Virus record (IMG/VR): IMGVR_UViG_3300029923_000015
Span: 14,732-78,731 of that record
From: a virus
Strand: one strand, 5' to 3'
Length of the DNA: 64,000 nucleotides
How positions within the stretch are numbered: the first letter of the stretch is position 1; each line of letters begins with the position of its first letter. The position numbers were made by a program, and so were the translations under genes. The notes beneath the pieces were generated by a model that did no database searches, was not told the DNA's origin, and was given only the letters and a program-made list of their open reading frames with translations. Of the stretch, positions 50,065 through 64,000 are shown piece after piece.

Positions 50065-50105
50065 AAAAATGCCATCACCTGCAGTTAGCAAGTAATGGCA
50101 TTTTT
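50065..50105. terminator. Bidirectional terminator between convergent modules
   Basis: AAAAATGCCAT (50065-50075) / ATGGCATTTTT (50095-50105) with A/T tracts on both sides, where the + and - gene blocks meet. Confidence 0.7.
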
Positions 50106-50657
50106 AGTTTCGTCTTTAATCATTATAGCATGCATAATGTCTTCTCTTGTCGGAAGATAATCAACTTCGTATATTTCTTCATTCTCTATTTTCCCTAACG
50201 TCTTATCGCTACGGTATAGTGAGTGAAATAATAATGAGTCAACTCCCTCTTCCCAAAAAGATATTATATCTGCTTTATCATCTCCGCTTATATGTCTATA
50301 GTCCCCATCAAGGATATGTCTATATGACTTTTCCTTTTCATCTGGTATCCTATATGCATAGATTACGTAAAAGACTTTATTTATTTTTACTGTATATTTT
50401 GATTTGAAATTCTCATTTCTTCTTAACTTTGATAATGGTAGATCTAAATCTATTGCTGCTTCGAAAAGTAGGAATATATGTCGATCCAACCATGGCTTAT
50501 TTATATCTATGTTGTATCCATTCACAAAACTGTCGTCTCGCGTCGAATATAGGTTTTTTGCGCCTGTGTAATCTAACCAAGTTTCACCTTTTTCAGCTAC
50601 TAATGGTAATAAAAATAGTAATGAGGAATTCAATGTTTCTTTAAGTACCATGTTCAA
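50085..50657 (-). CDS. Hypothetical protein
   Basis: 190-aa ORF overlapping the stop of the nuclease gene. Confidence 0.7.
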   Translation of the reverse strand: MNMVLKETLNSSLLFLLPLVAEKGETWLDYTGAKNLYSTRDDSFVNGYNIDINKPWLDRHIFLLFEAAIDLDLPLSKLRRNENFKSKYTVKINKVFYVIYAYRIPDEKEKSYRHILDGDYRHISGDDKADIISFWEEGVDSLLFHSLYRSDKTLGKIENEEIYEVDYLPTREDIMHAIMIKDETKNAITC

Positions 50658-51642
50658 GTAATGATTCTACACCATCACCTTCGTAGTATTCTTTTGTGTA
50701 ATCCCATAGACCATTGCGTAAGTGCCAATCTATTTGTGATAAGTTGTTGTCTATGTCTGTAAGTTTGTTGAGTATTGTTCTTTCCGGAACACTCAAAACT
50801 TTAACTTCATTGTTGCCGTTTTCAATGGTTACAATATAAGTTTCGCTTCTGTATTCCTCTATATCAAGATTCAATTCGTTTTTAAAATACCAATATATCG
50901 CCATCCAATAGAATGCCATTTGCTGCCCGTAATCGTATTTTGTAAATGATTCTGCAAAATTACTATTACTAAGTGTCGTTTTTATATCAATTAATTTTAT
51001 TACTTTGCTTTCGTGGTCTATTATTAATCTGTCGATTAATGATTTGCATGAAACTGTTCCTCCGAATTTTGTCTCGTATTCCCAGTTAATATGGAATTCA
51101 TTATGTGTTTCTACATTAGGTGAATCCAGTTCTGTCAAAATGAGTTCTCTCGCTTTCTTATGAAGCGAAACATTCTCTTTCATTATTTTCAATGAAGTTA
51201 ATTGAGCCCATGACATATTCTTTTGTCCGGCAGTATTACTTCTCAACCATTTGATATATCCTTTTAGCTGTAGAGCCATTTTAAGGGCCGTAGCTTCAAT
51301 CGTAGCATCTGTCTTACCAGTTGCACTATAATTCAATTTAAATGCCTCTATCGCCTTTAAAACGACGCTAGGGGCTTTGCTATCTATATAAGATTGGCAA
51401 AATTGTTTTTGTTGAGAGGATGATGGTATTGTAAAGTCCAATATCCTATACATCTTACTAAATTCATTGTATTGTAATAGGTAAGCATGCCTCATGGTTC
51501 CATTATCCATCGCGGACGAGGCGTCGTTTGGTATCTTGCCGTCAAGTTTATCCCTAAAGTATCTAGGAGATATTTTGAACCAATTTAAACTGGATCTTGA
51601 TATCCTTGAGTTGTCTTCGTAATATGGTATACTAATATCCAT
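50641..51642 (-). CDS. PD-(D/E)XK exonuclease (RecE/DUF3799-like); likely start 51642
   Basis: ISRSSL...SP, GTMRH, CKSLIDRL...LIDIKT and YDYGQQMAFY motifs. The upstream extension to 51678 overlaps a hairpin. Confidence 0.8.
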   Translation of the reverse strand: MDISIPYYEDNSRISRSSLNWFKISPRYFRDKLDGKIPNDASSAMDNGTMRHAYLLQYNEFSKMYRILDFTIPSSSQQKQFCQSYIDSKAPSVVLKAIEAFKLNYSATGKTDATIEATALKMALQLKGYIKWLRSNTAGQKNMSWAQLTSLKIMKENVSLHKKARELILTELDSPNVETHNEFHINWEYETKFGGTVSCKSLIDRLIIDHESKVIKLIDIKTTLSNSNFAESFTKYDYGQQMAFYWMAIYWYFKNELNLDIEEYRSETYIVTIENGNNEVKVLSVPERTILNKLTDIDNNLSQIDWHLRNGLWDYTKEYYEGDGVESLLEHGT

Positions 51643-51668
51643 TTTATTTCGGTTTAAGTAAAAAAAAT

Positions 51669-51718
51669 AATAAAGCATGTGTCAGGATTATCACATCCAA
51701 GTTTGCACATGCTTTATT
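51669..51718 (-). terminator. 13-bp hairpin followed by a U-tract on the - strand
   Basis: AATAAAGCATGTG (51669-51681) / CACATGCTTTATT (51706-51718), with a run of A at ~51660-51667 on the + strand. Confidence 0.55.
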
Positions 51719-51745
51719 TGCTAACCCCTTAGCATATTTTATAGA

Positions 51746-52066
51746 TTATGCTGCCAATTTAGTTCCAAAGAATGCTAAATACAATCTTTCGATAGCTTCT
51801 TTAGTCTTTTTTGCATCTTCTTTTTTCTTTTCAGTTTTGAGTAATTTATTGACATCTAAATCTTCAATGTTTTCAACTAATTTGTTGAATTCATTTTCAG
51901 CTTCTATCAACTGATCCGAGCAAAAGTCTGTTGCTGATTCAAATTTGCGTTTAGTCGAACGTTCCACGAGTGGTTCTTTCAATTTCTTTGCAATATCTGC
52001 AGTCATGTTATAAAATTTCTTAAATAAATTCTCTTTTGCTGGTATAATCACTTTTGTTGCTTCCAT
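51746..52066 (-). CDS. Hypothetical coiled-coil protein
   Basis: 106-aa Lys/Glu-rich ORF with an A-rich start context. Confidence 0.65.
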   Translation of the reverse strand: MEATKVIIPAKENLFKKFYNMTADIAKKLKEPLVERSTKRKFESATDFCSDQLIEAENEFNKLVENIEDLDVNKLLKTEKKKEDAKKTKEAIERLYLAFFGTKLAA

Positions 52067-52067
52067 T

Positions 52068-52295
52068 TTAATAGTTTTGTTTGATTGTAATAAACGTTGT
52101 GTAGTCCAATATTTCTATCGGACCTATTGTATGTTCTTTTGCTTCTGTAACTAGTTGAGTGTTTGCATCTCCAAAAGGTGTATATGGTTTAATGTTATCA
52201 TATATGCTACTTCTTTTGTATGTCATTCTCCCAGTCCTTGCACACCAATCCTCGTATGTTTCATATCTACGAGGTAATAAATTATCTGCATCCAT
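52068..52295 (-). CDS. Hypothetical protein
   Basis: 75-aa ORF abutting the next gene. Confidence 0.55.
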   Translation of the reverse strand: MDADNLLPRRYETYEDWCARTGRMTYKRSSIYDNIKPYTPFGDANTQLVTEAKEHTIGPIEILDYTTFITIKQNY

Positions 52296-52319
52296 AATTG
52301 TATACTGTATTTGAATTGT

Positions 52320-52397
52320 TGCCTATCTCGGTGTTACTCCGATAAGGGGTATTATCTATGAATTTAGACAATACCCCTTTCCTGTTCTGTAATAGGC
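52320..52397 (-). ncRNA. tRNA-like (tmRNA-TLD-like) structured element
   Basis: On the - strand: GCCTATT/GATAGGC 7-bp acceptor-like stem, an unpaired linker, a 15-bp hairpin, a TCGG-AGTAACA-CCGA T-arm-like hairpin, then AACAA. G.U pairs form only on the - strand. Confidence 0.45.
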
Positions 52398-52450
52398 TCG
52401 ACGATTATAGGTCTTCGTCGGTATTTTTATCTTCATTCATATGTAAAATA

Positions 52451-53635
52451 TTACTTATAAATGTAGAAAATGTCTTCTTTTTTTGTCCCTTGCATGTCAT
52501 TTTTTTTCGAAAATAATGCGAATTTAACTTCAATGTTCTTTGATTCAGCTTCGGCAAAAATAGCTTCTCTCTGGTCTGCATTGTATATTGAACCGGTACC
52601 GTCTGAGATCACTAATAAATATTGCTTTGTTTTAAGTTTTGTTAACAATCTAACTTTTTCTAATGTACATCGACCCATATTGTCTTCGTCATCTTCGTCA
52701 ATTGTAAACACTTTATTCTCCAAATCTGTTTTATTTCTTATTCGTTGTGGTGCAAATTCACCAGTTGAATACAAGTGTGAATTCCAAAAGGAATTTTCTA
52801 CGCTAATGTTCATTTTTACACAATCATCATATGTTTTTTCCATTAAGGCATTGCGCCAGTCATGAAAACCTCCCATACTTCCTGATCTATCAATAATGGT
52901 ATGCATAAATCTCTCACTTTCAATCACTTGTTTCAAGTATAACTCTTTGCCTATAATTTTTTTCATAAACAAAGCCTTAGGTTTAATAAATTCCACAGGA
53001 GATACCTTCTGTAAATCAGAAATTTTTGACATTTGTCTATATTTCTTTTTCTTAGAATTTGTAGTACCTTTCATTTTTTTTAGCCAAGCCTCCAATTCTT
53101 TGTATCCTACCATATCTTTTAGTGGGTTACCGTCCTCTGGCTCTTTGTGTTCGTTAGAATTTTCTTCTGCGCAGGTATTTCTACTTACTACCCCTTGCTC
53201 TTCTTTGATTTCCTCTTTTGTAGGTTCAAATTGGATTATGTCTTTGTACTCATTGTACATTGCATTGATCGTTCTATTTAAGATCGTGCCTTCTTCATAT
53301 TTCCCTGATTCTGCCATTATATCTGACTTCAAGGCTATATCTTTATAAGACTCGACGTCTTCTCCATCTTCCCCTTTCTGAAAAGCTGATTGCGTCTCGT
53401 ATCCGCTTAATTTATTATATATGCTTGGTAGCATAATGGATTCGAATTTTTTCAGTTCCAATTCCGCTGATTTATATTCTTTCGTATATGTCCCGCGCGC
53501 TTTACAATTTTCCATTTCTCTGTCTTTGTTTGATTTTAGAGCTTTTTTAATTGCTGCTAATTTCACAAAGTCTTCGTATTCCATATTGTACTTCATATCT
53601 TGGAAGCACGCGTGTGCGTTATTTCCTGCTATCAT
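52451..53635 (-). CDS. von Willebrand factor A (MIDAS) domain protein
   Basis: IIDRSGSM (DxSxS) and LLVISDG motifs in the C-terminal half, directly downstream of the AAA+ gene. Confidence 0.8.
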   Translation of the reverse strand: MIAGNNAHACFQDMKYNMEYEDFVKLAAIKKALKSNKDREMENCKARGTYTKEYKSAELELKKFESIMLPSIYNKLSGYETQSAFQKGEDGEDVESYKDIALKSDIMAESGKYEEGTILNRTINAMYNEYKDIIQFEPTKEEIKEEQGVVSRNTCAEENSNEHKEPEDGNPLKDMVGYKELEAWLKKMKGTTNSKKKKYRQMSKISDLQKVSPVEFIKPKALFMKKIIGKELYLKQVIESERFMHTIIDRSGSMGGFHDWRNALMEKTYDDCVKMNISVENSFWNSHLYSTGEFAPQRIRNKTDLENKVFTIDEDDEDNMGRCTLEKVRLLTKLKTKQYLLVISDGTGSIYNADQREAIFAEAESKNIEVKFALFSKKNDMQGTKKEDIFYIYK

Positions 53636-53637
53636 TA

Positions 53638-54867
53638 TTATCGCTTGTTAATCAGGGTTAATAACTCATCAATTTCTTTTATTGCATTTATAGCACTTTG
53701 TTCTCCACTCAAAGCGATAGCCTTTCTAGCGATAGCCTTTTTAATGATTTCCAGGTTTCGACTGGTATCAATGAATGAATCATAATCTGTAATTTGTCCG
53801 TCTCGTATTGCTTTCTTTGTCGTTACGATTTCGTTAAATAGTGATTTATATACATTGATACTTGTTTTTGTTTTCAGGTAATTGGTTACTGGCGTCATCA
53901 AATTATTGGTGATCTTTTCAGAATAGTTCTTATTCTTAATGATATCCAAATTTTTAATGTATTTTGACATTTCCAGAATCTTTCGTGGGGAAAGACCTTT
54001 CATCTCTGTAATAGTGTCAATCATTGCAGCCAGTTTATCTTCTCCAAAGTCTGGATAACGATTTAAAATCAGACTCGCTGAGTTTAGTTTGTTGATTTCG
54101 TACTGGAATGGATATGATACAGCGAATCGTTGAGTTAACGCCTCTGTTGAGTCATCTTCAATTACTTCTTCGTATGTTTTGTTGGTAAGCCCGATAATAA
54201 TTTTGGTTTTTATCGGGAAACGTTGATTTCCGTTTCGAATTTCTTTTGAGGTTAATGTATCCTTAAGTGCGGCCAACACTTGTGGATTAGCGTCAAAGAT
54301 CTCTTCGAGAATCACAATCTCACTGTTTGCGAATGAATTTTCACAATTGTATTCGATTGAGCCCGTGTCAGTCATTTTCTTAATATTAATGCCTCCGAAT
54401 AAGTCTTCAACGGTGGTAGCTTCAGATAGCGATTTAATGAATACGCGCCCCTTCAATTCTGCACATGAAAATAATTCGTCACAAACTTCTGATTTACCAA
54501 AACCTCCTTTACCGTATAATATGAGGTTCATATCATTTGACAATGCATTCTTGATAACCTGGGAAGGTCCAGACATGTTAATGAATTTCTTGCTGATAAT
54601 TTCATATATTTTGTCAGAGTTTTTGTATTCGCTCAACAAAATATCACCGAATTCGGCAAGTATGTTTTTCTTCACTTTACGGAATTTTCGTCCGTCAATT
54701 TCCTCGTCGATCCATTCTCCTTCTGATATATATTCGCTATTGTCCTGAATTACGAAGTCAAATGTATTTTTGTCGATGACGATAAATTTACTCGTCTTAA
54801 CTCCGAAATGTTTTTCAGTCTCCATTGGACTAATCAGATAATTTTCTGTATTGGATTTTATATTCAT
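53638..54867 (-). CDS. MoxR/RavA-like AAA+ ATPase
   Basis: Walker A GKGGFGKS, Walker B IVILEEIF, plus EDLFGG, IRNG, GLTN and ALTQRF motifs. Confidence 0.85.
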   Translation of the reverse strand: MNIKSNTENYLISPMETEKHFGVKTSKFIVIDKNTFDFVIQDNSEYISEGEWIDEEIDGRKFRKVKKNILAEFGDILLSEYKNSDKIYEIISKKFINMSGPSQVIKNALSNDMNLILYGKGGFGKSEVCDELFSCAELKGRVFIKSLSEATTVEDLFGGINIKKMTDTGSIEYNCENSFANSEIVILEEIFDANPQVLAALKDTLTSKEIRNGNQRFPIKTKIIIGLTNKTYEEVIEDDSTEALTQRFAVSYPFQYEINKLNSASLILNRYPDFGEDKLAAMIDTITEMKGLSPRKILEMSKYIKNLDIIKNKNYSEKITNNLMTPVTNYLKTKTSINVYKSLFNEIVTTKKAIRDGQITDYDSFIDTSRNLEIIKKAIARKAIALSGEQSAINAIKEIDELLTLINKR

Positions 54868-54971
54868 TTTGATATGTTTTGTTTTTTGATTAACAGAGTA
54901 ACTCCATTCTGTTAACGAAGATTAATAATAGTGATAATTATTTGAACTTTTCCAAGGTTCAATTTAAATTG

Positions 54972-55045
54972 TAGGCCATACGAGATTCGAACTCGTATAC
55001 TATCTTATTTCTAAGATCCCCATGTACCTATGTGGGCAATGGCCT
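54972..55045 (-). ncRNA. tRNA-like RNA with no canonical anticodon loop
   Basis: 74-nt cloverleaf: AGGCCAT-TG-CCCA-CATAGGTACA-TGGG-G-ATCTT-AGAAAT-AAGAT-AGTAT-ACGAG-TTCGAAT-CTCGT-ATGGCCT-A. Confidence 0.8.
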
Positions 55046-55235
55046 TCCGATTATTTTGTCTTTGAAGTGTGCACTATTTCATTGCACTCTACTGATATAC
55101 CCATATACATCTAACGTTTGTTTTTCCCTGGGTTATCATCCCAATTGCAATCTTCTACTTTTTTACATTGCTTTGATCACACATCGCAATACTTTAACAG
55201 GTTGCTAATCGATATGGACGATCCTGTTCTTTCAG

Positions 55236-56213
55236 CTAATTAGCCATTGAATCAAAAATCTGTAATGCTTTCGCATATCCCAGTCCTTTGACTAAATCGC
55301 TAATATCTTTTGTTTTATACTTTTTGTTGATAAAGATTGCATTTATATTATACGCTTTTGATACTTTCCTTGCATATTCAACTCCTGCTTTATCTCTATC
55401 GTAAAAAATCAATATTCTTTTAAACCTTTTTTTCAGGTTATTCATTACACTCTCTGGTATTGTAACGCTTTCGCTCGAAGGAGCAACTGCATCATATCCC
55501 ATCTCATGTAATACCATGACATCTTTCAATGATTTTGTGATAATAAGCAAATCCCCATTTTCCGGTAATTGCTCAAATCCTTGAATATCAAGAGCGTTTA
55601 AATTCCCTCTCCATTTTATCATTTTAGAACCAAAAGGCCTATAAATTTTAAACTTGTTAAACACTTTGTAACAGTACAAAGGGTTTTCTATTTCGTATTT
55701 ACCTTTTACTATTCCATTTGTTAAAAACTTAGAAATTGGACTAACATTGTATATCTTAAGTGTTTCTTTAGATACACCAAAGCTACTCCAAAATTTAATA
55801 TCAGTAAGATTTAATGGCTTTCTGACTACGCTTATAATCGTGTCTTTAATTAATCGTTGCTTATGCTCTGACGACATCATTAATTTTAACCCATTAATAT
55901 TCATATCTTCTGAAATTACTTTCAAGGTCTCTTCATATGTATTTAGGTTTTTTAGTCGTTTAACAAATTTAAATACGTTTCCGCAGTCATCGCTTGCCAA
56001 GTCTTTATACAATAGATCTCCCGTTTTTCTACTTACAAAAATTCCAAATGAAGGATTTTTGTCATCTCGTAACGGACTATTATATATATAACCTATTTTA
56101 AAATCACCTATATATTTAGAGAAGATATCATAATCAGTTACTTTCTCTAGTATATTTTGCATTGTAATTTTGGCCTCTGCGTTTTGATTTAGAATAGTAT
56201 TGGTATTATACAT
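55236..56213 (-). CDS. dnaG: DNA primase (DnaG-like, TOPRIM)
   Basis: SPLRDDKNPSF N-terminal domain; LIITKSLKDVM, APSSE, FYDRDKAG and KDISD motifs typical of crAss primases. Confidence 0.88.
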   Translation of the reverse strand: MYNTNTILNQNAEAKITMQNILEKVTDYDIFSKYIGDFKIGYIYNSPLRDDKNPSFGIFVSRKTGDLLYKDLASDDCGNVFKFVKRLKNLNTYEETLKVISEDMNINGLKLMMSSEHKQRLIKDTIISVVRKPLNLTDIKFWSSFGVSKETLKIYNVSPISKFLTNGIVKGKYEIENPLYCYKVFNKFKIYRPFGSKMIKWRGNLNALDIQGFEQLPENGDLLIITKSLKDVMVLHEMGYDAVAPSSESVTIPESVMNNLKKRFKRILIFYDRDKAGVEYARKVSKAYNINAIFINKKYKTKDISDLVKGLGYAKALQIFDSMAN

Positions 56214-56231
56214 AATCTGTTTATAATCAGC

Positions 56232-56882
56232 TTAAAAAGGCGCTGTCATAGAATTAGCGGTAGCGTTCATCATATTCACTGCTGTAGCTCCTCCACCAAA
56301 TATATTTGCTGCCGTTGCAGTTGATGTTTCTTTATCTCCTATTTCTGGACGATCAAACACATCAATACCTAATTTTTTAATCTTAGATTTATCCGCTGGG
56401 ATATCCATGCTCTCAATGAAAGTATATTTGGCATATTTAGGCAATGAGGTATAACCTGTTTCGCCATAAATAACTTTTACTCTCAATAGTTTGTTTTTAT
56501 CAACTGCATCCATTAATGATTTGACCCATGAGTACAATTCATCGAACTCGCTGAAAGTGTAGTTCTGTAATGCTTCTTTTTCGTAGAAACATCCCATAAC
56601 TTGTAATATTCTTGCCACTTGGTTATTTGCTTTTGTTGCAAATTGTTCGTCTGTGTCTTCTGATCTTTTATTTGGTTCCCATTCTGTATGGGTTAACTTG
56701 GCTCCGTTTTTTGCAAATTCGAATTCAAGGAATAAATTGCCCCCGGTGGAGCGTTCTTTTCTCACGTTAACAAAGTTTACATTTTCGTGAATACCTCCTT
56801 CTAAGAAGGCAATGTCTTTCTTTTCAACGTCAAAAGCGTTTTGTGTACTAAATATCATAATCTGTCTCTTTCTATTAATCAT
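56232..56882 (-). CDS. Putative single-stranded DNA-binding protein
   Basis: Lies between the ATPase and primase and has a flexible C-terminal tail ending in PF. The likely start is the second Met (MIFST). Confidence 0.55.
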   Translation of the reverse strand: MINRKRQIMIFSTQNAFDVEKKDIAFLEGGIHENVNFVNVRKERSTGGNLFLEFEFAKNGAKLTHTEWEPNKRSEDTDEQFATKANNQVARILQVMGCFYEKEALQNYTFSEFDELYSWVKSLMDAVDKNKLLRVKVIYGETGYTSLPKYAKYTFIESMDIPADKSKIKKLGIDVFDRPEIGDKETSTATAANIFGGGATAVNMMNATANSMTAPF

Positions 56883-57621
56883 TTGATGGCAAAAATACTT
56901 TATCCCAATAGGTTGTAATCACATTATCTTTATCAGAATCTGCTATAACTATTTTTTTCCCTCTTAGGTGCGGGGCTCTTGCTTCTCTTACTGAGTTTAC
57001 TCCTCCTTCAAATGATATTAAAGTCTCATTTGTTTTTCTATAAACATATCCCACTGCGTCTGCTTCTCCGCAGACTATTAATCCAAGTTTTCCAACCAAG
57101 TCTATTTCCATTTCAGATAATTCTATTCCGTCTTTAGTTATTAGACTGTCTTTTGTATGTCCTATCAGAATAAAATGATCTGTTAGGTTACGAAAGTTAT
57201 CTATTACTGTTTTTACGGCTTCCCTTAAATAAAGATATCCTGCTCCTTTTTCTAACGTTCTCACATCAGTTCCAGTCCAGTTCTTTGCTATTGGGTTTTG
57301 TTTATATAGGCTGGCGGCATATGGCAAACACATGTCTTCTAGTCTTGTAGCATTATCTATTGCAATGTAATCGTATGGTTTTTTCCCTGTTTCTGCAATT
57401 TTTGTTTTAATTGCTGTTGCTATCTCTCCTAGATCTGTGACGCTTCTAGCTTGAACTGCCATTGCTTCTAAGAACTCTGATCCGCCTTCTAGATCTACTA
57501 TTAGGCAGTTTTTTAGGGTTGATAGTAATGTTGTTTTTCCAGTTTTAGGCTTTCCAAACAAAATTAAGAATCTTGGGTTTAATACTTTGGGTATGCTTTT
57601 TATTGTTGGTAGTATAACCAT
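56875..57621 (-). CDS. Sak4-like / AAA_24 ATPase
   Basis: Walker A GKPKTGKT, plus IVDLEGG, IAIDNAT, LIGH and ADAVGY motifs. Confidence 0.85.
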   Translation of the reverse strand: MVILPTIKSIPKVLNPRFLILFGKPKTGKTTLLSTLKNCLIVDLEGGSEFLEAMAVQARSVTDLGEIATAIKTKIAETGKKPYDYIAIDNATRLEDMCLPYAASLYKQNPIAKNWTGTDVRTLEKGAGYLYLREAVKTVIDNFRNLTDHFILIGHTKDSLITKDGIELSEMEIDLVGKLGLIVCGEADAVGYVYRKTNETLISFEGGVNSVREARAPHLRGKKIVIADSDKDNVITTYWDKVFLPSND

Positions 57622-57717
57622 TTTGCTGTCTTATTGTTAAAAAACAGCAGATGATTTTTTATTTGATAGAGTTGACAATATTTGATATGATTTGATATAA
57701 TCATCCGCATGTTATTA

Positions 57718-58272
57718 TTATGCGTAGATATTTTCGATAGTAACAGTATACTCGGTGGTGTATTGAGGTTTACGATAACTATAGAAGGTTGGAAAGCTAA
57801 TTGCCTTTGGGATTATGGTGTATCCTACTTTTGTACAAGAAGCAAATTCTTCTACATCTGTAATATTTCCACAAAGTGGGCATTTATAACTTTCTGAGTA
57901 ACGGTCGTTACTTTTTGTGGTTTGTTTTGCGTTGTTGAGCGCAAATAACGTCAGGTGTTTTAGCGCTCCTGCTGTTTCTGTCATCAAATTGTAGTTTGGC
58001 ATTTTGTATCCATCTTTCAAATATGATAAATCTTCAATCCAATTTACATCGTGTGTTTTACTGGTACCGAAAGTCAATACGCTTCCTGCTGGTGCATAGT
58101 CTATTCCTTTAATACTCTTTCCTAGGGTATTTTTGAATGGAGCGTCTGTTCCGGCCACTGTCAACCATGGGCATCCTTCGATGATCGTTTCTACAAATGC
58201 TGTTTTTTTCAAACCGAATCTGTCTTGTTTCTTTGTTGGCAATGTTACCGTAAAATTGTAATAGTTATTCAT
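57718..58272 (-). CDS. Hypothetical protein with CxxC motif
   Basis: 184 aa with CPLCG. Confidence 0.65.
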   Translation of the reverse strand: MNNYYNFTVTLPTKKQDRFGLKKTAFVETIIEGCPWLTVAGTDAPFKNTLGKSIKGIDYAPAGSVLTFGTSKTHDVNWIEDLSYLKDGYKMPNYNLMTETAGALKHLTLFALNNAKQTTKSNDRYSESYKCPLCGNITDVEEFASCTKVGYTIIPKAISFPTFYSYRKPQYTTEYTVTIENIYA

Positions 58273-58285
58273 GATGTGTGTTTTT

Positions 58286-59293
58286 TTAAATTTTTATTTC
58301 TAGCTGCTGTTGGTGTCTTTCCGCGGTTATTTCGTCTTCTTCTGGCTCTTTTAGGTTGTTATACTTTAGATCATTGATAAATTTCAATATCTTAAGGTCC
58401 CCTTCTCTATTTTTCAAAAAATGTAAGTATACACAATCTTTTACGGGGAGATTGTTGTAACCATAGGATAATAATCCTAATACTTCAGGTCTGTGTATTA
58501 CTATGACATAGTCTGATCCTTGGAAGACCGCATCGCTTGACGATAAGTCGCTTCGCTGTGGGTAATGAAGAGAACTATTGTTTAACCTTTCTGGCGATTC
58601 AATATTCCTATTCATTTGTGATATTTGTATGATAGAGGTTTTACCAACTTTTTTTGCCCCTATTAATTCTTTTTCTAAATCCACAATAATTTCTCTTTCT
58701 CCTCCGGTACCACTTCCTCTAATTAATAGAGTATGGTCTATAATGACTACTAGCCATTTCCCTTTGGCAAGAGTATCTTGAAAGAATTTTATTGTTGTTG
58801 CTATTTCGCTTACGTTCCCTGGCGTATCTACATAATAAATTGGATAACTCATTATTGTTTTTGCCTCTTTCTGTATCCCCTCATACTCTTCGTCCGTTAT
58901 TAGCCCCTTTTCTGAGGCACTATATAACTCTGATGTGGTTTTTTTTAGTTTATAGGATAATTTTCTTCCCACTTGCCTGCTTGATAGCATTTCAAACGAA
59001 AATGATAGGATTACTATATCTTCGCGTGGATTTAGATCAATAAGATCAGTTTCTAATGTATTGACAAATGACGACTTTCCACTCCCAGAGACCCCTGCTA
59101 TTGCATATATGGCATTTGGTTCAATTCCTCCCATTGCTAGGCGATTGAATTTAGGCCATCTGGTCGCTAATGAGTTTACTTTTTTTGTCCTTCTGTCTTG
59201 AATATATCCAACAATTTCGTTCGTAGCAGTTGATATATGTCTGTATCCTAGTATTTTACTACTCGATTGCGGTGCCATAAACTTCCCCTGCAT
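58286..59293 (-). CDS. dnaB: Replicative DnaB-like helicase
   Basis: Walker A GVSGSGKS, plus FSFEM, IIDH, SQMNR, SDL...FQGSD and LKNREG motifs. It lacks the N-terminal domain of cellular DnaB. Confidence 0.9.
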   Translation of the reverse strand: MQGKFMAPQSSSKILGYRHISTATNEIVGYIQDRRTKKVNSLATRWPKFNRLAMGGIEPNAIYAIAGVSGSGKSSFVNTLETDLIDLNPREDIVILSFSFEMLSSRQVGRKLSYKLKKTTSELYSASEKGLITDEEYEGIQKEAKTIMSYPIYYVDTPGNVSEIATTIKFFQDTLAKGKWLVVIIDHTLLIRGSGTGGEREIIVDLEKELIGAKKVGKTSIIQISQMNRNIESPERLNNSSLHYPQRSDLSSSDAVFQGSDYVIVIHRPEVLGLLSYGYNNLPVKDCVYLHFLKNREGDLKILKFINDLKYNNLKEPEEDEITAERHQQQLEIKI

Positions 59294-59825
59294 GTTTTTG
59301 AATTTTTTTATCTTTCATAAATTCGTCATATAATAGCCATTCTTCAGATAATAGCCATTTAGCCATTCTCTTCATATAACCTAGTGAATTTCCTCTTTTT
59401 CTTGTTTCTACTTCGAATTTTAGGCAATCCATCATGTGGTCATGTTTGGTTTTGTTTTTTCCTACTATTTTATCATAATACTTCCTACATCGAGATATAT
59501 CTCCTCGTAAGTAATCCTTTAGTCCATCATTTCTCAGCACTGATGCTGGATATGCTTCAAAGAATTCAGTAAAATAATCTTTAACTTTAATTTTTGTTTT
59601 AAAGTCTTCGGTTATGACTAGTTTTGAAAAATCTTTTTCATCAAAAGTTGATTCTTTTGTTAATATATCCTTATCTATTAGGTTGTTGATGTCATCTTCT
59701 TCTAATGGAATTACGTCCAGTAGAGGTCTTATTGGTGTTTTATTCATCAGCAAACTAATCAATATAATCTGATTTACTGTAATCCCGAGACGCTTAGCCT
59801 CTTCCAAATCTAGTTCTATCAGCAT
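59259..59825 (-). CDS. Putative replication initiator / helicase-loader-like protein
   Basis: FTEFFEAYP and KWLLSEEW motifs as in phage replication proteins; overlaps the dnaB start. Confidence 0.5.
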   Translation of the reverse strand: MLIELDLEEAKRLGITVNQIILISLLMNKTPIRPLLDVIPLEEDDINNLIDKDILTKESTFDEKDFSKLVITEDFKTKIKVKDYFTEFFEAYPASVLRNDGLKDYLRGDISRCRKYYDKIVGKNKTKHDHMMDCLKFEVETRKRGNSLGYMKRMAKWLLSEEWLLYDEFMKDKKIQKHAGEVYGTAIE

Positions 59826-59877
59826 TTTTAATTTACTTTTAAGTTAAATCTTATGTGATAAAGTTTGATAGGATCTG

Positions 59878-60363
59878 TTATTTCATTTCAGAATAATCAT
59901 CTAATGTGATTTCTGGCCTTAGTAGAACATTTACGAACGCTTGCTCCATTTCTGGTGATATCTTTCCGTTGTGCTCTTTCATGTATTTATCGATTGCGAT
60001 AATATGATCTTTTGTTAAATCGCTAACTCTTCGGTTTAATGGTTCATCTAAAAGATTCATGTCTTTGTCGTAGAGCGAAGTCCAATACAAACATTCTTCT
60101 GGTGGAAGTCCCTGTGACATTAAAATGTCTGGCTCTTCTGCATGCCATATTACAATGTCATTTGGCACTATTTGCATGTTTATAAGGACTTGGCCGATTC
60201 TCATATCTGGATTTTCTTTCCAGTATTCTGGAACAGTTGGTTTTATTGCGTATGCAATTTTTTTATCGTAATAAATTTCTTTATCCAATTTCCATCTGTT
60301 ATATAATAGGTCATTCCAATCTACTTTTTTTAAAAAATCATCTATTCTTTCAATTGGTCTCAT
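59878..60363 (-). CDS. Hypothetical protein
   Basis: 161 aa. The MRPIERID...WKENPDMRIGQVL motif is common in small phage proteins. Confidence 0.7.
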   Translation of the reverse strand: MRPIERIDDFLKKVDWNDLLYNRWKLDKEIYYDKKIAYAIKPTVPEYWKENPDMRIGQVLINMQIVPNDIVIWHAEEPDILMSQGLPPEECLYWTSLYDKDMNLLDEPLNRRVSDLTKDHIIAIDKYMKEHNGKISPEMEQAFVNVLLRPEITLDDYSEMK

Positions 60364-60385
60364 TTTGTTTGTTTTTTAATGTGAT

Positions 60386-60583
60386 GACAGATAATTTGGA
60401 GTTACAAACTTGTAGGCGTTTCGTGGACGCCTCGTTGTCTGATTTTACGCTTGACTGTCCAGTTAATCACAATACTTTGATTACGAGTCTCTGTATTATA
60501 GTCGTATACTGTAACGCAACACCAGTCTTTAGACCCTTATGAAGCTAACGAACTCTATTTGCCCTTTTTTTAAATTATCTGTC
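60386..60583 (-). ncRNA. Candidate ~200-nt structured RNA
   Basis: A perfect 12-bp closing stem GACAGATAATTT/AAATTATCTGTC encloses several hairpins. The strand is assumed from the flanking genes. Confidence 0.45.
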
Positions 60584-60586
60584 TTT

Positions 60587-60650
60587 TGTTAAAGCTTGGG
60601 AATTGGACCCAATTACACTTCTTCTAGTGCATTTACCATTACTTCTTTGT
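60587..60650 (-). ncRNA. Degenerate tRNA-like element
   Basis: On the - strand: AATGGTAA D-loop-like segment, GCACT-AGAAGA-AGTGT arm, TTGGG-TCCAATT-CCCAA T-arm, then ...AACAA. The acceptor stem is weak. Confidence 0.4.
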
Positions 60651-60655
60651 TAGTG

Positions 60656-61114
60656 TTATGCTGCGTCATTAATTTCTTCAGCGTTAAATTTTAGCAGATA
60701 TTCCTCCAGTATAGTTATCTTCCCATTCAATTCAGTAATTTCATCGTTGATGAATTTTCTACTAAATACCACTTTTTCGGTATCTTCCTTTTTTGTTGGG
60801 ATCATTGCCAATTTTGTTGCTCGTTCTTTAATTTGTTGTAATAAAAAGATCGAATAGAACGCGCTATCTTTAGAGATAAGACTTAGGTCCTTAATTCCAA
60901 AATTAATTGCCTGTAGTTTGATCTTCGTTTCGATCAACTTGGCTTCGTCTTTTTTAATTTGAGCATATACAGCTGTTAAATTGTATAGAGGCATCATCTC
61001 TGTTGGTAATACATTGTTTTTAATAATAAGATTCCAAGAGGTTTTGATCTGTGCGATAAGTACTTCGCGTTTTGCGATCAGTTTTGTAGGTGTAATTTTA
61101 GTAGGTGCTGTCAT
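60656..61114 (-). CDS. Hypothetical coiled-coil protein
   Basis: 152-aa ORF with ATCAAA-ATG start context. Confidence 0.7.
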   Translation of the reverse strand: MTAPTKITPTKLIAKREVLIAQIKTSWNLIIKNNVLPTEMMPLYNLTAVYAQIKKDEAKLIETKIKLQAINFGIKDLSLISKDSAFYSIFLLQQIKERATKLAMIPTKKEDTEKVVFSRKFINDEITELNGKITILEEYLLKFNAEEINDAA

Positions 61115-61206
61115 TTTGATAATTTTTTAGTTTTGATTATTACTAATAGTTAATTCTTTTTGACCTAAAGCAACCTCTCCGTGTTAAATAACAGATATCA
61201 CTCTGT

Positions 61207-61314
61207 TTATTCTTTTTTAAAAGGACAAAGCAGTTCCTCCCCGTTTAAGGTTTGGATCTGCGTTATTTTTTTTGTGTGTTTTCTAAGCCATAATGAATAT
61301 TGTTTTTTGTACAT
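61207..61314 (-). CDS. Possible 35-aa small ORF (MYKKQYSLWLRKHTKK...)
   Basis: Fills the gap between two - strand genes and is below the ORF-track size cutoff. Confidence 0.3.
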   Translation of the reverse strand: MYKKQYSLWLRKHTKKITQIQTLNGEELLCPFKKE

Positions 61315-61422
61315 TGTCTTCTCGCTTAGCGTAAATGATCCTCGGAGTTACCCAATCATATACAGTTCGAACGTCAGGGTTTAACCTCAATGAATTTCAA
61401 TATTTATTACTTAATTAAAAAA

Positions 61423-61944
61423 CTACCTTTTGCCAATTATGACAATTTTATTGTTTCTTTTGCCATTTAATAATGCGCAAACATTCTCATTTAGCTCTCG
61501 GATGCTAGGTTCCTTTCGGAATATAACTTCTCCTGGATAGAGCATTCGTTGTTTGGACTCAATTGTTACCTTTTGCCCAATCACTTTTGCCTCTTCTATT
61601 TGAGGGTCTTCGTCTATTATATGTGCTGTATAGAGTTTTGCAATAACTGTTGATCTATCATTGTTGTCAATTAATATATCAATAGAATTATCGCATGTAG
61701 TTGCTATGAAAGGGATTACTCCCTTAACATCCATAATTCCTTTTACAATTATCCCTACCACTTCTAAGAAGTCATAGTGGTCTTCTGAACTCCGTTTAAA
61801 GAGTCTTGCCAACCAAGATTTAACTGTTAAAGAAACCTCACCTTTCCCATTTATTGAAAAACGTTCAGATGGTTTGAGATAGACATTGACTAATTCAGCT
61901 AATCGCTGCAAATCAATATCATTTAAACTAGTCTTTTTATCCAT
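61423..61944 (-). CDS. Hypothetical protein
   Basis: 173-aa ORF. Confidence 0.65.
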   Translation of the reverse strand: MDKKTSLNDIDLQRLAELVNVYLKPSERFSINGKGEVSLTVKSWLARLFKRSSEDHYDFLEVVGIIVKGIMDVKGVIPFIATTCDNSIDILIDNNDRSTVIAKLYTAHIIDEDPQIEEAKVIGQKVTIESKQRMLYPGEVIFRKEPSIRELNENVCALLNGKRNNKIVIIGKR

Positions 61945-61979
61945 ATTGAATATGAATTAAGAGTTCTTGCGAACTCGGA

Positions 61980-62447
61980 TTAGTCCTCTTCTTCTTCGTA
62001 CAACGGAATAGCTGCGGTATTTGCCTTGTTAGCGGCAATTAGACAGTTAATCTGTTCTTCGATATCATCGCGAATAATTGTCAAGCGATTAATCTCGCTT
62101 TCATTTTCAGCGTTGCAAATTGAGATTGCCTCCTTATAGGAAGGGAAATATGTGTCGGGCTCTTTTTCGAGATCGAATTTACCGGCGTCTTCTGCGAATT
62201 TGTAATTACCAGGGAATAAGACTTTGTTGTCTCCTCCGTTCACTACGTAAATTTCCGATCCACCAGGTCCGTGTGTCAATTTCACTTCGTTTACTACGAG
62301 TGCTTTTGGCATGCAGATAAGTGCAAGTTTTTCGATACGTAATTCTTTTTCTTTTGACTTGTGATTTACATCAACTGGTTTTGATGCTATTTTGAAAATT
62401 TCTGCGCCAGCAAAAAGCCGCTGACCTACTTTATTCTTTGTCTTCAT
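61980..62447 (-). CDS. Hypothetical protein
   Basis: 155-aa ORF with GGAGGTCAAA upstream of the ATG. Confidence 0.7.
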   Translation of the reverse strand: MKTKNKVGQRLFAGAEIFKIASKPVDVNHKSKEKELRIEKLALICMPKALVVNEVKLTHGPGGSEIYVVNGGDNKVLFPGNYKFAEDAGKFDLEKEPDTYFPSYKEAISICNAENESEINRLTIIRDDIEEQINCLIAANKANTAAIPLYEEEED

Positions 62448-62449
62448 TT

Positions 62450-64000
62450 TGACCTCCGTTTTTAATTGATTTAATTACTGTGTTTTGAAAATATTTTGCG
62501 TCTTACTGAGAGTTTAATCTGTTCCGACTAGAAAATTTGATGTAAAATGTAAAGAAATTTAATAATGATTGGTTACACTCCAATCCTAAATCCATTGCTC
62601 TCCTACTCGCAGGGCATGTAATCCTTATATCACTATATACTTTCTGTATCTGTCAGTCGCTAGACGATTTATTTACTATAAACCTCATAAGTAGTCTCTT
62701 ATGATCAATCTTATTACCTCAGCATTATCTGCCACTGCTCTAAGACGCTCCATTCCATTGTATATATGTATGCCCTAGTTTCATCGTTTTCTCGGGCTGG
62801 TTTTGAATAAAAGCGGTATTTGAATAATGGGCTTCTCCATCTATTCCAGTTATATTTACACAACAAGCCTATGGATGTTTATGTCACGATCTACCCTTGA
62901 GATTAGCCTCTTGAGTATAGTAAATACAATAGCCGATAATATTTGATAATTTAAAAAAACTATTCTTTAGCATTAAGAATAGAGAAGAACGTATGTAGAA
63001 AGATTTCGTAACGAACCTTGTATCAATTCCTATGGCAAATGAAGCCATGGTGTTCTGAAGTTCCATATTGTGTCAAGTCTTGAAACTTGAGTTACTATTG
63101 ATATAATTTGCAATGTTTTGTTTAAATCCTATTTAGTGACTACTTTATATATGTACATAAGCACGGGGCAAATAATCATATTCTTAATTATTTACTTTGT
63201 TTACAGTTTGGACCTGCGTGTTCTGTACCTTTCTCCATTAAAGGACTGATTCCAACTATGGGCGCCAGGTTTCTAAACTTCAGACTCTTGTATTGAAATG
63301 ACTTTCTTATCGTCTTGTACCGAATGATTGTTCATTTCCCTATTCTATTGGTTTTAAAGTGTTTGACCTTCCACTTGGTTTTGCATATCGAGCTCCTTTG
63401 CGCCCCTATTATTACTATTCATAAGACATATGATAGCAATAAGTATACCGGGTTCTAGCCGTATTGACATATGCTGTAAAAGCTTACTACTCTTTTACTG
63501 GTGATATAAACTTTGCCCATATATCATGGGTTTGAAGTTTTCCTGTCTGGCAGGTCGTACTCCTAACTAGCCATTCTTTTAGTTTTTCGCATGATTTGTT
63601 CTATAGCTTAATCTACTGCCCGAATCTCGCCGGGATGAAACTATATAGCGAGTTTCCAACTTCGGCTTTCGCCTTTCTGTTCGTTATCACACTTACAACG
63701 TGTGTTTCCTATCTACTAGTATAGGCGCAGACCACTTTCGATTAACCTTGAAAGCAACAACTAGGTTGGTTTTTATATTGTTTCATTCATTTTAAAACCA
63801 GTAATATAATGAGATGTTCGCTATCTAGGTCCATGGGCCTTTGGTTTTTTAATTGCCAAAAAGATAACTTCAACTATTGGATTTCCACCCCGCGCATTAC
63901 TAGCCGGTTTATGTATTCTATTAATAGTTGTTTTTGCATTTTCTCCTTTAATCTTCCATCTCTCATGGGCTGATCGCCATTATTATAGCGCGGGGAGTTA
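62450..64000. ncRNA. Candidate large structured non-coding RNA region (runs off the window end)
   Basis: No credible ORF in 1.55 kb. It has many hairpins and long-range 7-8 bp perfect helices, including crossing (pseudoknot) pairs. Confidence 0.55.

Follow-up and report, generated by a model that had tools for sequence, protein, structure and literature searches.

Large ornate RNAs, among them GOLLD, ROOL and OLE, are rare. GOLLD (RF01998) is a very large non-coding RNA (ncRNA) of phages and prophages, built of many helices, with conserved cores, a variable periphery and GNRA loops; ROOL (RF03087) is likewise a large ornate RNA found in phage and prophage contexts. GOLLD forms RNA-only oligomers, as seen by cryo-electron microscopy, and ROOL forms homo-oligomeric cages (PMC12286853). 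OLE (RF01071) works with dedicated small proteins, and RNA II of ColE1 is a structured transcript that adjoins replication functions. Here we describe a locus that invites comparison with these RNAs, from a phage of the crAss-like group, which is among the most abundant phage groups. It lies at the end of a stretch of 64,000 nucleotides (nt), called the window below, which comprises bases 14732-78731 of a 78,731-bp virus contig (IMG/VR record IMGVR_UViG_3300029923_000015) estimated to be 80% complete. Window positions 62448-64000, read on the minus strand, probably make up three quarters, on the 3' side, of a locus of 1.7-2.2 kb for a very large, multi-domain structured ncRNA, present as one molecule or as a few in tandem.

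The source phage has plus-strand open reading frames (ORFs) of 4566, 1898 and 1869 amino acids (aa), and a minus-strand gene block at 50085-62447 that includes a DnaB-like helicase. Nowhere else in the contig is there so long a run free of ORFs of at least 80 aa as in the 1,553 bases that follow, 62448-64000. No ORF of at least 90 aa occurs there in any frame under code 11 or with TAG read as Q, TGA as W or TAA as Q, and the gene-free stretch of a full-length homologue (L002) is likewise without an ORF under alternative codes. That the locus is a protein-coding region in decay or with many interruptions, or consists of small ORFs, is scarcely credible: ORFs of 40-86 aa exist, but none of them is conserved in the homologues, indels are not multiples of three, the short conserved blocks are flanked by covarying stems, and there is no match to a group I or II intron that would allow a split gene. 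Such an intron was also considered as the identity of the locus itself and rejected, there being no Rfam match to RF00028, RF00029 or related models, and the flanking ORFs being separate, complete genes.

A preliminary description of this DNA had proposed a second large, ornate RNA-like domain at 63200-64000, separate from a first at 62450-62780 and running off the end of the window. The existence of a large structured domain is borne out. A large ornate structured ncRNA was defined operationally as one of more than 400 nt with no ORF and many conserved helices with covariation; the locus is ORF-free, its position is conserved in 14 genomes, and its covariation exceeds that of controls. Its status as a second, separate unit is not borne out: 63200-64000 is the middle of a single ORF-free locus of roughly 2 kb, which also includes the first domain. 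The end of the window coincides with the end of the contig, and a profile comparison (nhmmer) places 62448-64000 at positions 547-1931 of a 1933-position profile. The locus as present here therefore lacks about 550-610 nt from its 5' part, which lie beyond the contig end; a search of the rest of the source contig did not find them. Ends of other, independent contigs also fall inside gene-free loci at L009:1, L004:1, L054:1 and L062:1, as they do at window position 64000; assembly may tend to break at such loci, perhaps through strain variation.

Also upheld was the suggestion that the domain is comparable in scale to GOLLD and ROOL without a diagnostic match, and possibly of an undescribed class, in that no Rfam family matches the locus. 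Whole-window cmscan at the gathering score gave 0 matches, a search of 62300-64000 at E values up to 10 gave unrelated weak matches only, and full-length L002 at E values up to 1 gave none. The 801 nt from 63200 to 64000 have modest minimum free energy z-scores of -2.7 on the minus strand and -2.3 on the plus strand (20 shuffles each).

Relatives of the locus were sought by retrieving 80 related loci (L numbers) from IMG/VR with the helicase, followed by BLAST and profile searches. A subset of these, forming a small clade of environmental crAss-like phages, carries a homologous gene-free stretch. A further copy was found with a covariance model, R1 (see below), in the complete, terminally repeated genome behind L011 (G001), bringing the total to 14 distinct versions, with a gap of 1.7-2.2 kb in each. 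In all 14 genomes the ORF-free gap lies between homologues of a small protein upstream, u114, and homologues of two others downstream, p155 and p173. Outside this set, R1 gave no match in two complete relatives with 60-69% helicase identity, L083-L100 and L106 showed no profile similarity to the locus, distant-mode blastn against 50,697 phage records gave no match, and pattern scans of viral, metagenome and genome contigs returned nothing beyond duplicates or chance matches.

In the profile alignment, near-invariant collinear blocks are kept although the flanking proteins are only 30-47% identical, and the stretches between the blocks vary in sequence and length. The order of the blocks and a similar total length are kept throughout the 14 genomes. 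The two ends of the locus differ from its middle (Table 1), which is partly deleted in L005, replaced in L008 and unrecognisable in L016, L017 and L026. Large structured RNAs commonly show this arrangement, in which the cores are conserved and the peripheral domains vary.

Evidence for the RNA reading comes from covariation, assessed within four domains, D-a to D-d, among other parts of the locus. Because the family is small, controls were used throughout. Model R1, a covariance model of the multibranch domain D-c, was built from four close sequences only and recovers seven further genomes at E values of 0.0034 or below. In the resulting alignment 90% of cells pair, compared with 30-40% in slid controls, and 32 of 46 pairs are changed on both sides, a level reached by none of 500 shuffles. 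This alignment is fitted to the model. For that reason the same structure was projected onto 13 genomes in a plain, structure-blind MAFFT alignment, where 75.7% of cells remain paired, against 30-43% when slid. The helices that close D-c (63282-63287 with 63124-63129, and 63269-63278 with 63131-63140) show repeated double changes; one pair is C-G in seven genomes and U-A in five. A G-test with average-product correction was used to rank all 33,541 column pairs of the structure-blind alignment. The top 25 include three of the 27 D-c pairs that could be tested, against an expectation of 0.02 (P about 1e-6).

Structure predicted de novo agrees. RNAalifold applied to the 13-genome alignment yields pairs of which 65% are double-changed, compared with 29% and 10% in two coding regions from the same genomes that served as controls. 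The best helices found in this way fall in D-d (63008-63095), where 11 of 16 pairs are double-changed and one pair is U-A in nine genomes and C-G in four. For D-b, a second model (R2) finds L020 at an E value of 1.4e-12; 96% of cells are paired against 27-41% when slid, and 22 of 32 pairs are double-changed, which again none of 500 shuffles reaches. The D-b alignment has seven rows, two of them weak matches fitted to the model. The model of D-a (R3) matches the four close sequences only, with 96% of cells paired and 5 of 26 pairs double-changed. Conservation of sequence without compensatory change, an outcome that the preliminary description had named as telling against an RNA, is thus not what the homologues display.

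The putative RNA lies on the minus strand of the window. Several pairs are G-U in 9-12 of the 13 genomes and would read A-C on the opposite strand; over three domains, 97 cells are G-U and 17 A-C. Only on the minus strand do the conserved tetraloop hairpins carry GAAA and so fit GNRA; the flanking genes have the same orientation, which RNAalifold energies also favour slightly. The assignment is made because the G-U pairs, the GAAA loops and the strand of the flanking genes agree. The preliminary description had left the strand open, taking a GNRA loop and collinearity to favour minus and some G-U pairs to favour plus.

The same strand-specific pairing bears on whether the locus functions as DNA, for instance as an origin, packaging site or promoter array, or through a transcript that serves only as a replication primer, in the manner of ColE1 RNA II. 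The locus is AT-rich, heads the replication module and, in G001, lies 1.6-3.3 kb from the right end of the genome, all of which would suit such an element. Against it, the compensatory changes preserve the pairing of a single strand, with its G-U pairs and GNRA loops, which a function as double-stranded DNA would not require. An origin or promoter array had been named at the outset as an outcome that would tell against an RNA, and its hallmarks did not appear: no iterons or direct-repeat arrays were found, the repeat search returning two-copy families of 10-15 nt only; AT-rich unwinding blocks were not found in the locus; and promoter-like sites occur at chance level, without excess. We consider a DNA-level or primer-only function very unlikely.

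The individual pairings listed in the preliminary description fared unevenly. Every complementary segment is present where it was reported. An all-GC 8-bp complement had been singled out as notable, but one such match taken alone is unexceptional: 11 perfect 8-bp inverted repeats occur in the 801 nt, the figure after dinucleotide shuffling being 5.1 +/- 2.9, and 3.5% of shuffles reach 11. Of the proposed crossing pair, one half survives. CAACTATT/AATAGTTG, here called helix B, has fully paired arms in all six genomes that keep the 34-nt motif it encloses, with five different arm sequences. The all-GC half, CCCCGCGC/GCGCGGGG, does not survive. It is particular to the source phage; its 5' arm is not conserved (the L002 sequence differs) and shares bases with the covarying hairpin at 63975-63990. 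The 3' arm has a local partner instead, CCGGC, with two compensatory changes. That local hairpin, CCGGC/GC(G)CGG within the 34-nt motif, shows C-G to U-A and G-C to A-U changes.

The proposed multibranch stem, AGTTTGGA-CCTG/CAGG..TCTAAACT, was mis-paired, and better-supported partners exist for its strands: 63269-63278 pairs with 63131-63140, with a change of one U-A to C-G in three or four genomes, and a covarying local hairpin is closed by CCUGG. Similarly, AAACTT/AAGTTT gives way to a pairing of ACUUC with GGAGU. Among the smaller hairpins, CACAC/GTGTG and CCTAT/ATAGG are supported by compensatory changes in homologues, and GGC-GAAA-GCC and CTTTC/GAAAG by their invariance among close relatives and L020. 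GAAACT/AGTTTC lies within an insertion (63597-63645) found only in the source phage and absent from L002, L008 and L005 (alignment A1). The long helix that had been drawn around these hairpins, TTACTGGT/ACCAGTAA (63495-63502/63797-63804), has its 5' arm, in the RNA sense, within the 16-nt loop of the hairpin at 63787-63812. This loop has at least three possible partners of about equal energy, among them 63495-63502, 63894-63906 and, over 17 bp, 62475-62493 in the 3' tail; none of the three shows double-sided changes. The stem of the same hairpin is swapped for CUGUC/GACAG in L020, with loop length unchanged.

Two further local elements are of note in the middle of the locus. The palindromic centre of the self-complementary 14-mer at 63827-63840, CCAUGG, becomes CUAUAG in L028 and is still palindromic; such a sequence could fold into a hairpin or, alternatively, join one copy of the RNA to another by pairing. 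The adjoining hairpin, at 63840-63860, has a counterpart in L019 (L019:1700-1740) that resembles a transfer RNA (tRNA) T-arm, with CAGG, AUUCGAA and CCUG.

The 5' core can be followed in the relatives. There (L002:1468-1510 and homologues) it contains an H-type pseudoknot, formed between the loop of a GCGAC/GYCGC hairpin and a GUCC downstream. Covariation is seen in both stems, with the variants GGAC/GUCC, GGGC/GCCC and GAGC/GCUC. A short hairpin motif, consisting of UCC, a six-base loop UUAAAU, GGA and then GAAA, is repeated in the 5' and 3' cores (L002:1545-1560 and 63230-63246), with a weaker form at 63940-63955. The G-A/A-G juxtapositions that flank it hint at a kink-turn-like or T-loop-like module. 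At the other end of the locus, the 3' tail stops about 10 nt short of the Shine-Dalgarno sequence of the next gene.

Several points weigh against reading the locus as one very large ncRNA. The family comprises 14 distinct sequences in all, and four carry most of the information for 63200-64000; domain D-a is seen in only those four. For these closest sequences RNAalifold predicts about 80 helices, many with compensatory changes, and the proportion of compensatory pairs, 20%, is to be set beside 13% and 10% in coding DNA of the same genomes; taken alone, such a count from 3-7 close sequences is weak evidence, the coding controls scoring almost as high. Where the sequence of a relative departs from that of the window, the cells of the MAFFT alignment pair no more often than background (37.5%). 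The variable hairpins are evidently misaligned there, and their support leans on the fitted alignments. Misalignment of the variable parts also accounts for the few helices that RNAalifold returns from a global 13-sequence MAFFT alignment of the whole locus. Hairpin-potential z-scores between conserved anchors did not separate either way. The sole very long-range helix (63788-63804/62475-62493) is nearly invariant and has competing partners, so that the single-molecule status of the 2 kb rests on no covarying very long-range helix. The existence of a transcript, its limits and its stability are deductions from sequence. Finally, no terminator precedes p155, which is compatible with a messenger RNA (mRNA) leader.

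One alternative is that the locus encodes a tandem set of independent structured RNAs of a few hundred nt each, cut from the operon transcript. The tested domains D-b, D-a, D-c and D-d each close on themselves, and covariation support was found for no helix spanning more than about 170 nt; moreover, the middle domains are lost or replaced in relatives in which both cores remain. Independent units would sit less easily with the constant block order and similar total length of all 14 genomes, or with the lack of internal terminators or promoters that stand out, and the hairpin motif shared by the 5' and 3' cores fits one integrated fold. On balance such a tandem set is unlikely, while being a serious contender.

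A second alternative concerns the end of the locus next to p155. A giant structured 5' leader or intercistronic region would influence in cis how p155 and later genes are translated, processed or stabilised. The locus lies on the same strand as p155, abuts its Shine-Dalgarno sequence with no terminator between, and co-occurs with p155 and p173; 62475-62493, just upstream of that Shine-Dalgarno sequence, is the segment able to pair over 17 bp with 63788-63804. The distribution of conservation runs the other way, in that the least conserved part is nearest the start codon and the most conserved cores are 0.5-2 kb upstream. The long-range helix, too, is without double-sided changes. Known bacterial leaders and riboswitches need far less than 2 kb, and dozens of helices with conserved loop motifs far exceed those needs. 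A leader role is accordingly judged improbable.

The putative ncRNA belongs to a module of fixed order, u114, RNA, p155, p173, which lies on one strand and heads the block of replication genes. p155 is directly downstream in 11 of the 13 RNA-carrying genomes, and u114, p155 and p173 adjoin the RNA in 10 or 11 of 12 compared loci, with all three present in L107. None of the three proteins was detected in related loci without the RNA. In G001 (97,050 bp, complete, with direct terminal repeats) the module is within about 3.3 kb of the right end, and the physical terminus therefore falls between p173 and the other replication genes. The tRNAs of the relatives lie at least 4 kb from the RNA locus. 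In L020 a gene for a sigma-70 family sigma factor, resembling those of extracytoplasmic function, is found about 2.4 kb upstream of the RNA locus (L020:2117-2671).

The predicted model of p155 is a small beta-barrel followed by a long C-terminal helix of 50 residues (predicted local distance difference test score, 81). Its best fold match is EF-P domain I (Z 5.2), a predicted resemblance too weak for a function to be assigned. The fold search with p173 gave no match, and neither protein matched Pfam or PHROGs. An identical p155 protein is also encoded on another contig, of 93.7 kb; a search for related loci with p155 as query found none.

With the locus taken as a very large ncRNA, a tentative course of events can be outlined. 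Co-transcription with the early and replication genes is probable because the flanking genes are on the same strand, no terminator was found on the sense strand of the locus, and promoter-like sites show no excess; the RNA would thus be made as part of the early/replication operon. Its fold would comprise numerous local helices along with GNRA loops and one pseudoknot or more, and it might act as a stable scaffold, by itself, in oligomeric form or in complex with the co-conserved small proteins. Its mode of action would be like that of GOLLD and ROOL and unlike that of a short regulatory leader.

A comparable gap exists in a sister crAss-like clade (group B; 58-62% helicase identity, many contigs from one sample), where an ORF-free stretch of 2.0-2.3 kb lies upstream of the replication genes. 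Profile comparison of this gap with the present locus gave no similarity. RNAalifold gives 27% double-changed pairs in the sister-clade gap against 10-14% in coding controls, and the evidence for structure there is no more than suggestive. In some genomes of that clade a further stretch of about 2.1 kb, roughly 8 kb downstream of the helicase gene, is also without an ORF.

A bolder version of the ncRNA reading holds that the whole 2-kb locus is one RNA, that it is needed early in infection as a particle with u114, p155 and p173 or with its own copies, and that the sister-clade gaps are diverged versions of it. This is speculative, and we regard it as possible rather than likely. If true, the single 2-kb RNA would exceed in size every non-ribosomal structured RNA described from bacteria or phages, and, with diverged versions in the sister clade, giant RNAs would be a general and overlooked component of Crassvirales biology.

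Table 1. Coordinates of the locus, its parts, the adjoining genes and the sister-clade gaps. Plain numbers are window positions; other entries refer to the related locus or genome named.
Feature	Position	Strand	Remark
u114, 114 aa	L002:889-1233		upstream of RNA
RNA locus in G001	L107:490-2220 = G001:C1:93741-95471		
5' core	beyond contig end		most conserved part
Middle	~63300-64000		most variable part of locus
Hairpin with AAUA loop	63975-63990	-	3/5 pairs double-changed among 4 close sequences
Helix B	63871-63930	-	encloses 34-nt near-invariant motif
Hairpin UUUGG/CCAAA	63840-63860	-	sequences read by eye, no statistic
Self-complementary hairpin, 14-mer	63827-63840	-	sequences read by eye, no statistic
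Hairpin UCAUU/AAUGA, 16-nt loop	63787-63812	-	stem covaries
Domain D-b, seven helices	63642-63769	-	includes GAAA tetraloop hairpin 63664-63673
Insertion specific to source phage	63597-63645	-	forms own hairpins, including GAAACT/AGTTTC
Domain D-a, five helices	63467-63596	-	confined to four closest genomes
Hairpin	63414-63437	-	4/9 pairs compensatory
Near-invariant block, used as search motif	63349-63373	-	conserved in 8 distinct genomes
3' core	63008-63291		most conserved part
Domain D-c, multibranch, 8 helices	63120-63291	-	first half of 3' core
Domain D-d, second half of 3' core	63008-63095	-	helices nested around conserved UUYAGAAYACC motif
3' tail	62448-63007		conserved in close relatives, partly in L017 and L018
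p155, 155 aa	61980-62447	-	directly downstream of RNA
p173, 173 aa	61423-61944	-	downstream of p155
Sister-clade gaps	L046:2291-4325, L052:1994-4262, L056:2171-4165, L078:2067-4240, L067:2052-4060, L037:2020-4147		
Second sister-clade gap	L066:18003-20134, L067:17876-20004, L073:18128-20256, L075:18147-20278		

No description of a non-coding or structured RNA of this kind was found in the literature on crAss-like phages. Yutin 2021 makes no mention of non-coding regions, and the motifs reported in Fremin 2023 are of 29-151 nt only. The ncRNA of UG27 reverse transcriptases was considered and dropped, as no reverse transcriptase is near the locus.

Among described RNAs, the likeness to GOLLD is in size class, number of helices, conserved cores with a variable periphery, and GNRA loops. 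The locus differs in lacking a match to the GOLLD model at the gathering score or at E values up to 10, in its length (1.7-2.2 kb, GOLLD being about 800 nt) and in its host range, which here is that of a crAss-like phage, presumably of Bacteroidota. GOLLD is often beside tRNA genes, whereas the 64-kb window contains no tRNA (ARAGORN). ROOL shares the phage setting and the ornate character; it is about 580 nt long, its Rfam model does not match, and shared motifs were not seen. OLE offers a parallel of another sort, in that u114, p155 and p173 could play the role of its dedicated small proteins. It differs in being a chromosomal RNA of about 610 nt in extremophilic Firmicutes, again without an Rfam match here, and the proteins beside the present locus belong to no detectable family. 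ColE1 RNA II, about 550 nt long, forms a hybrid at a defined origin, whereas no origin features were found in the locus described here, and its predicted structure is far more elaborate. We rate the locus as a candidate new class within the large ornate phage RNAs. Its defined gene module and natural series of domain variants would give a concrete handle on a giant RNA, and, if the reading is true, a conserved folded RNA locus of 2 kb would be two to three times larger than GOLLD, ROOL and OLE.

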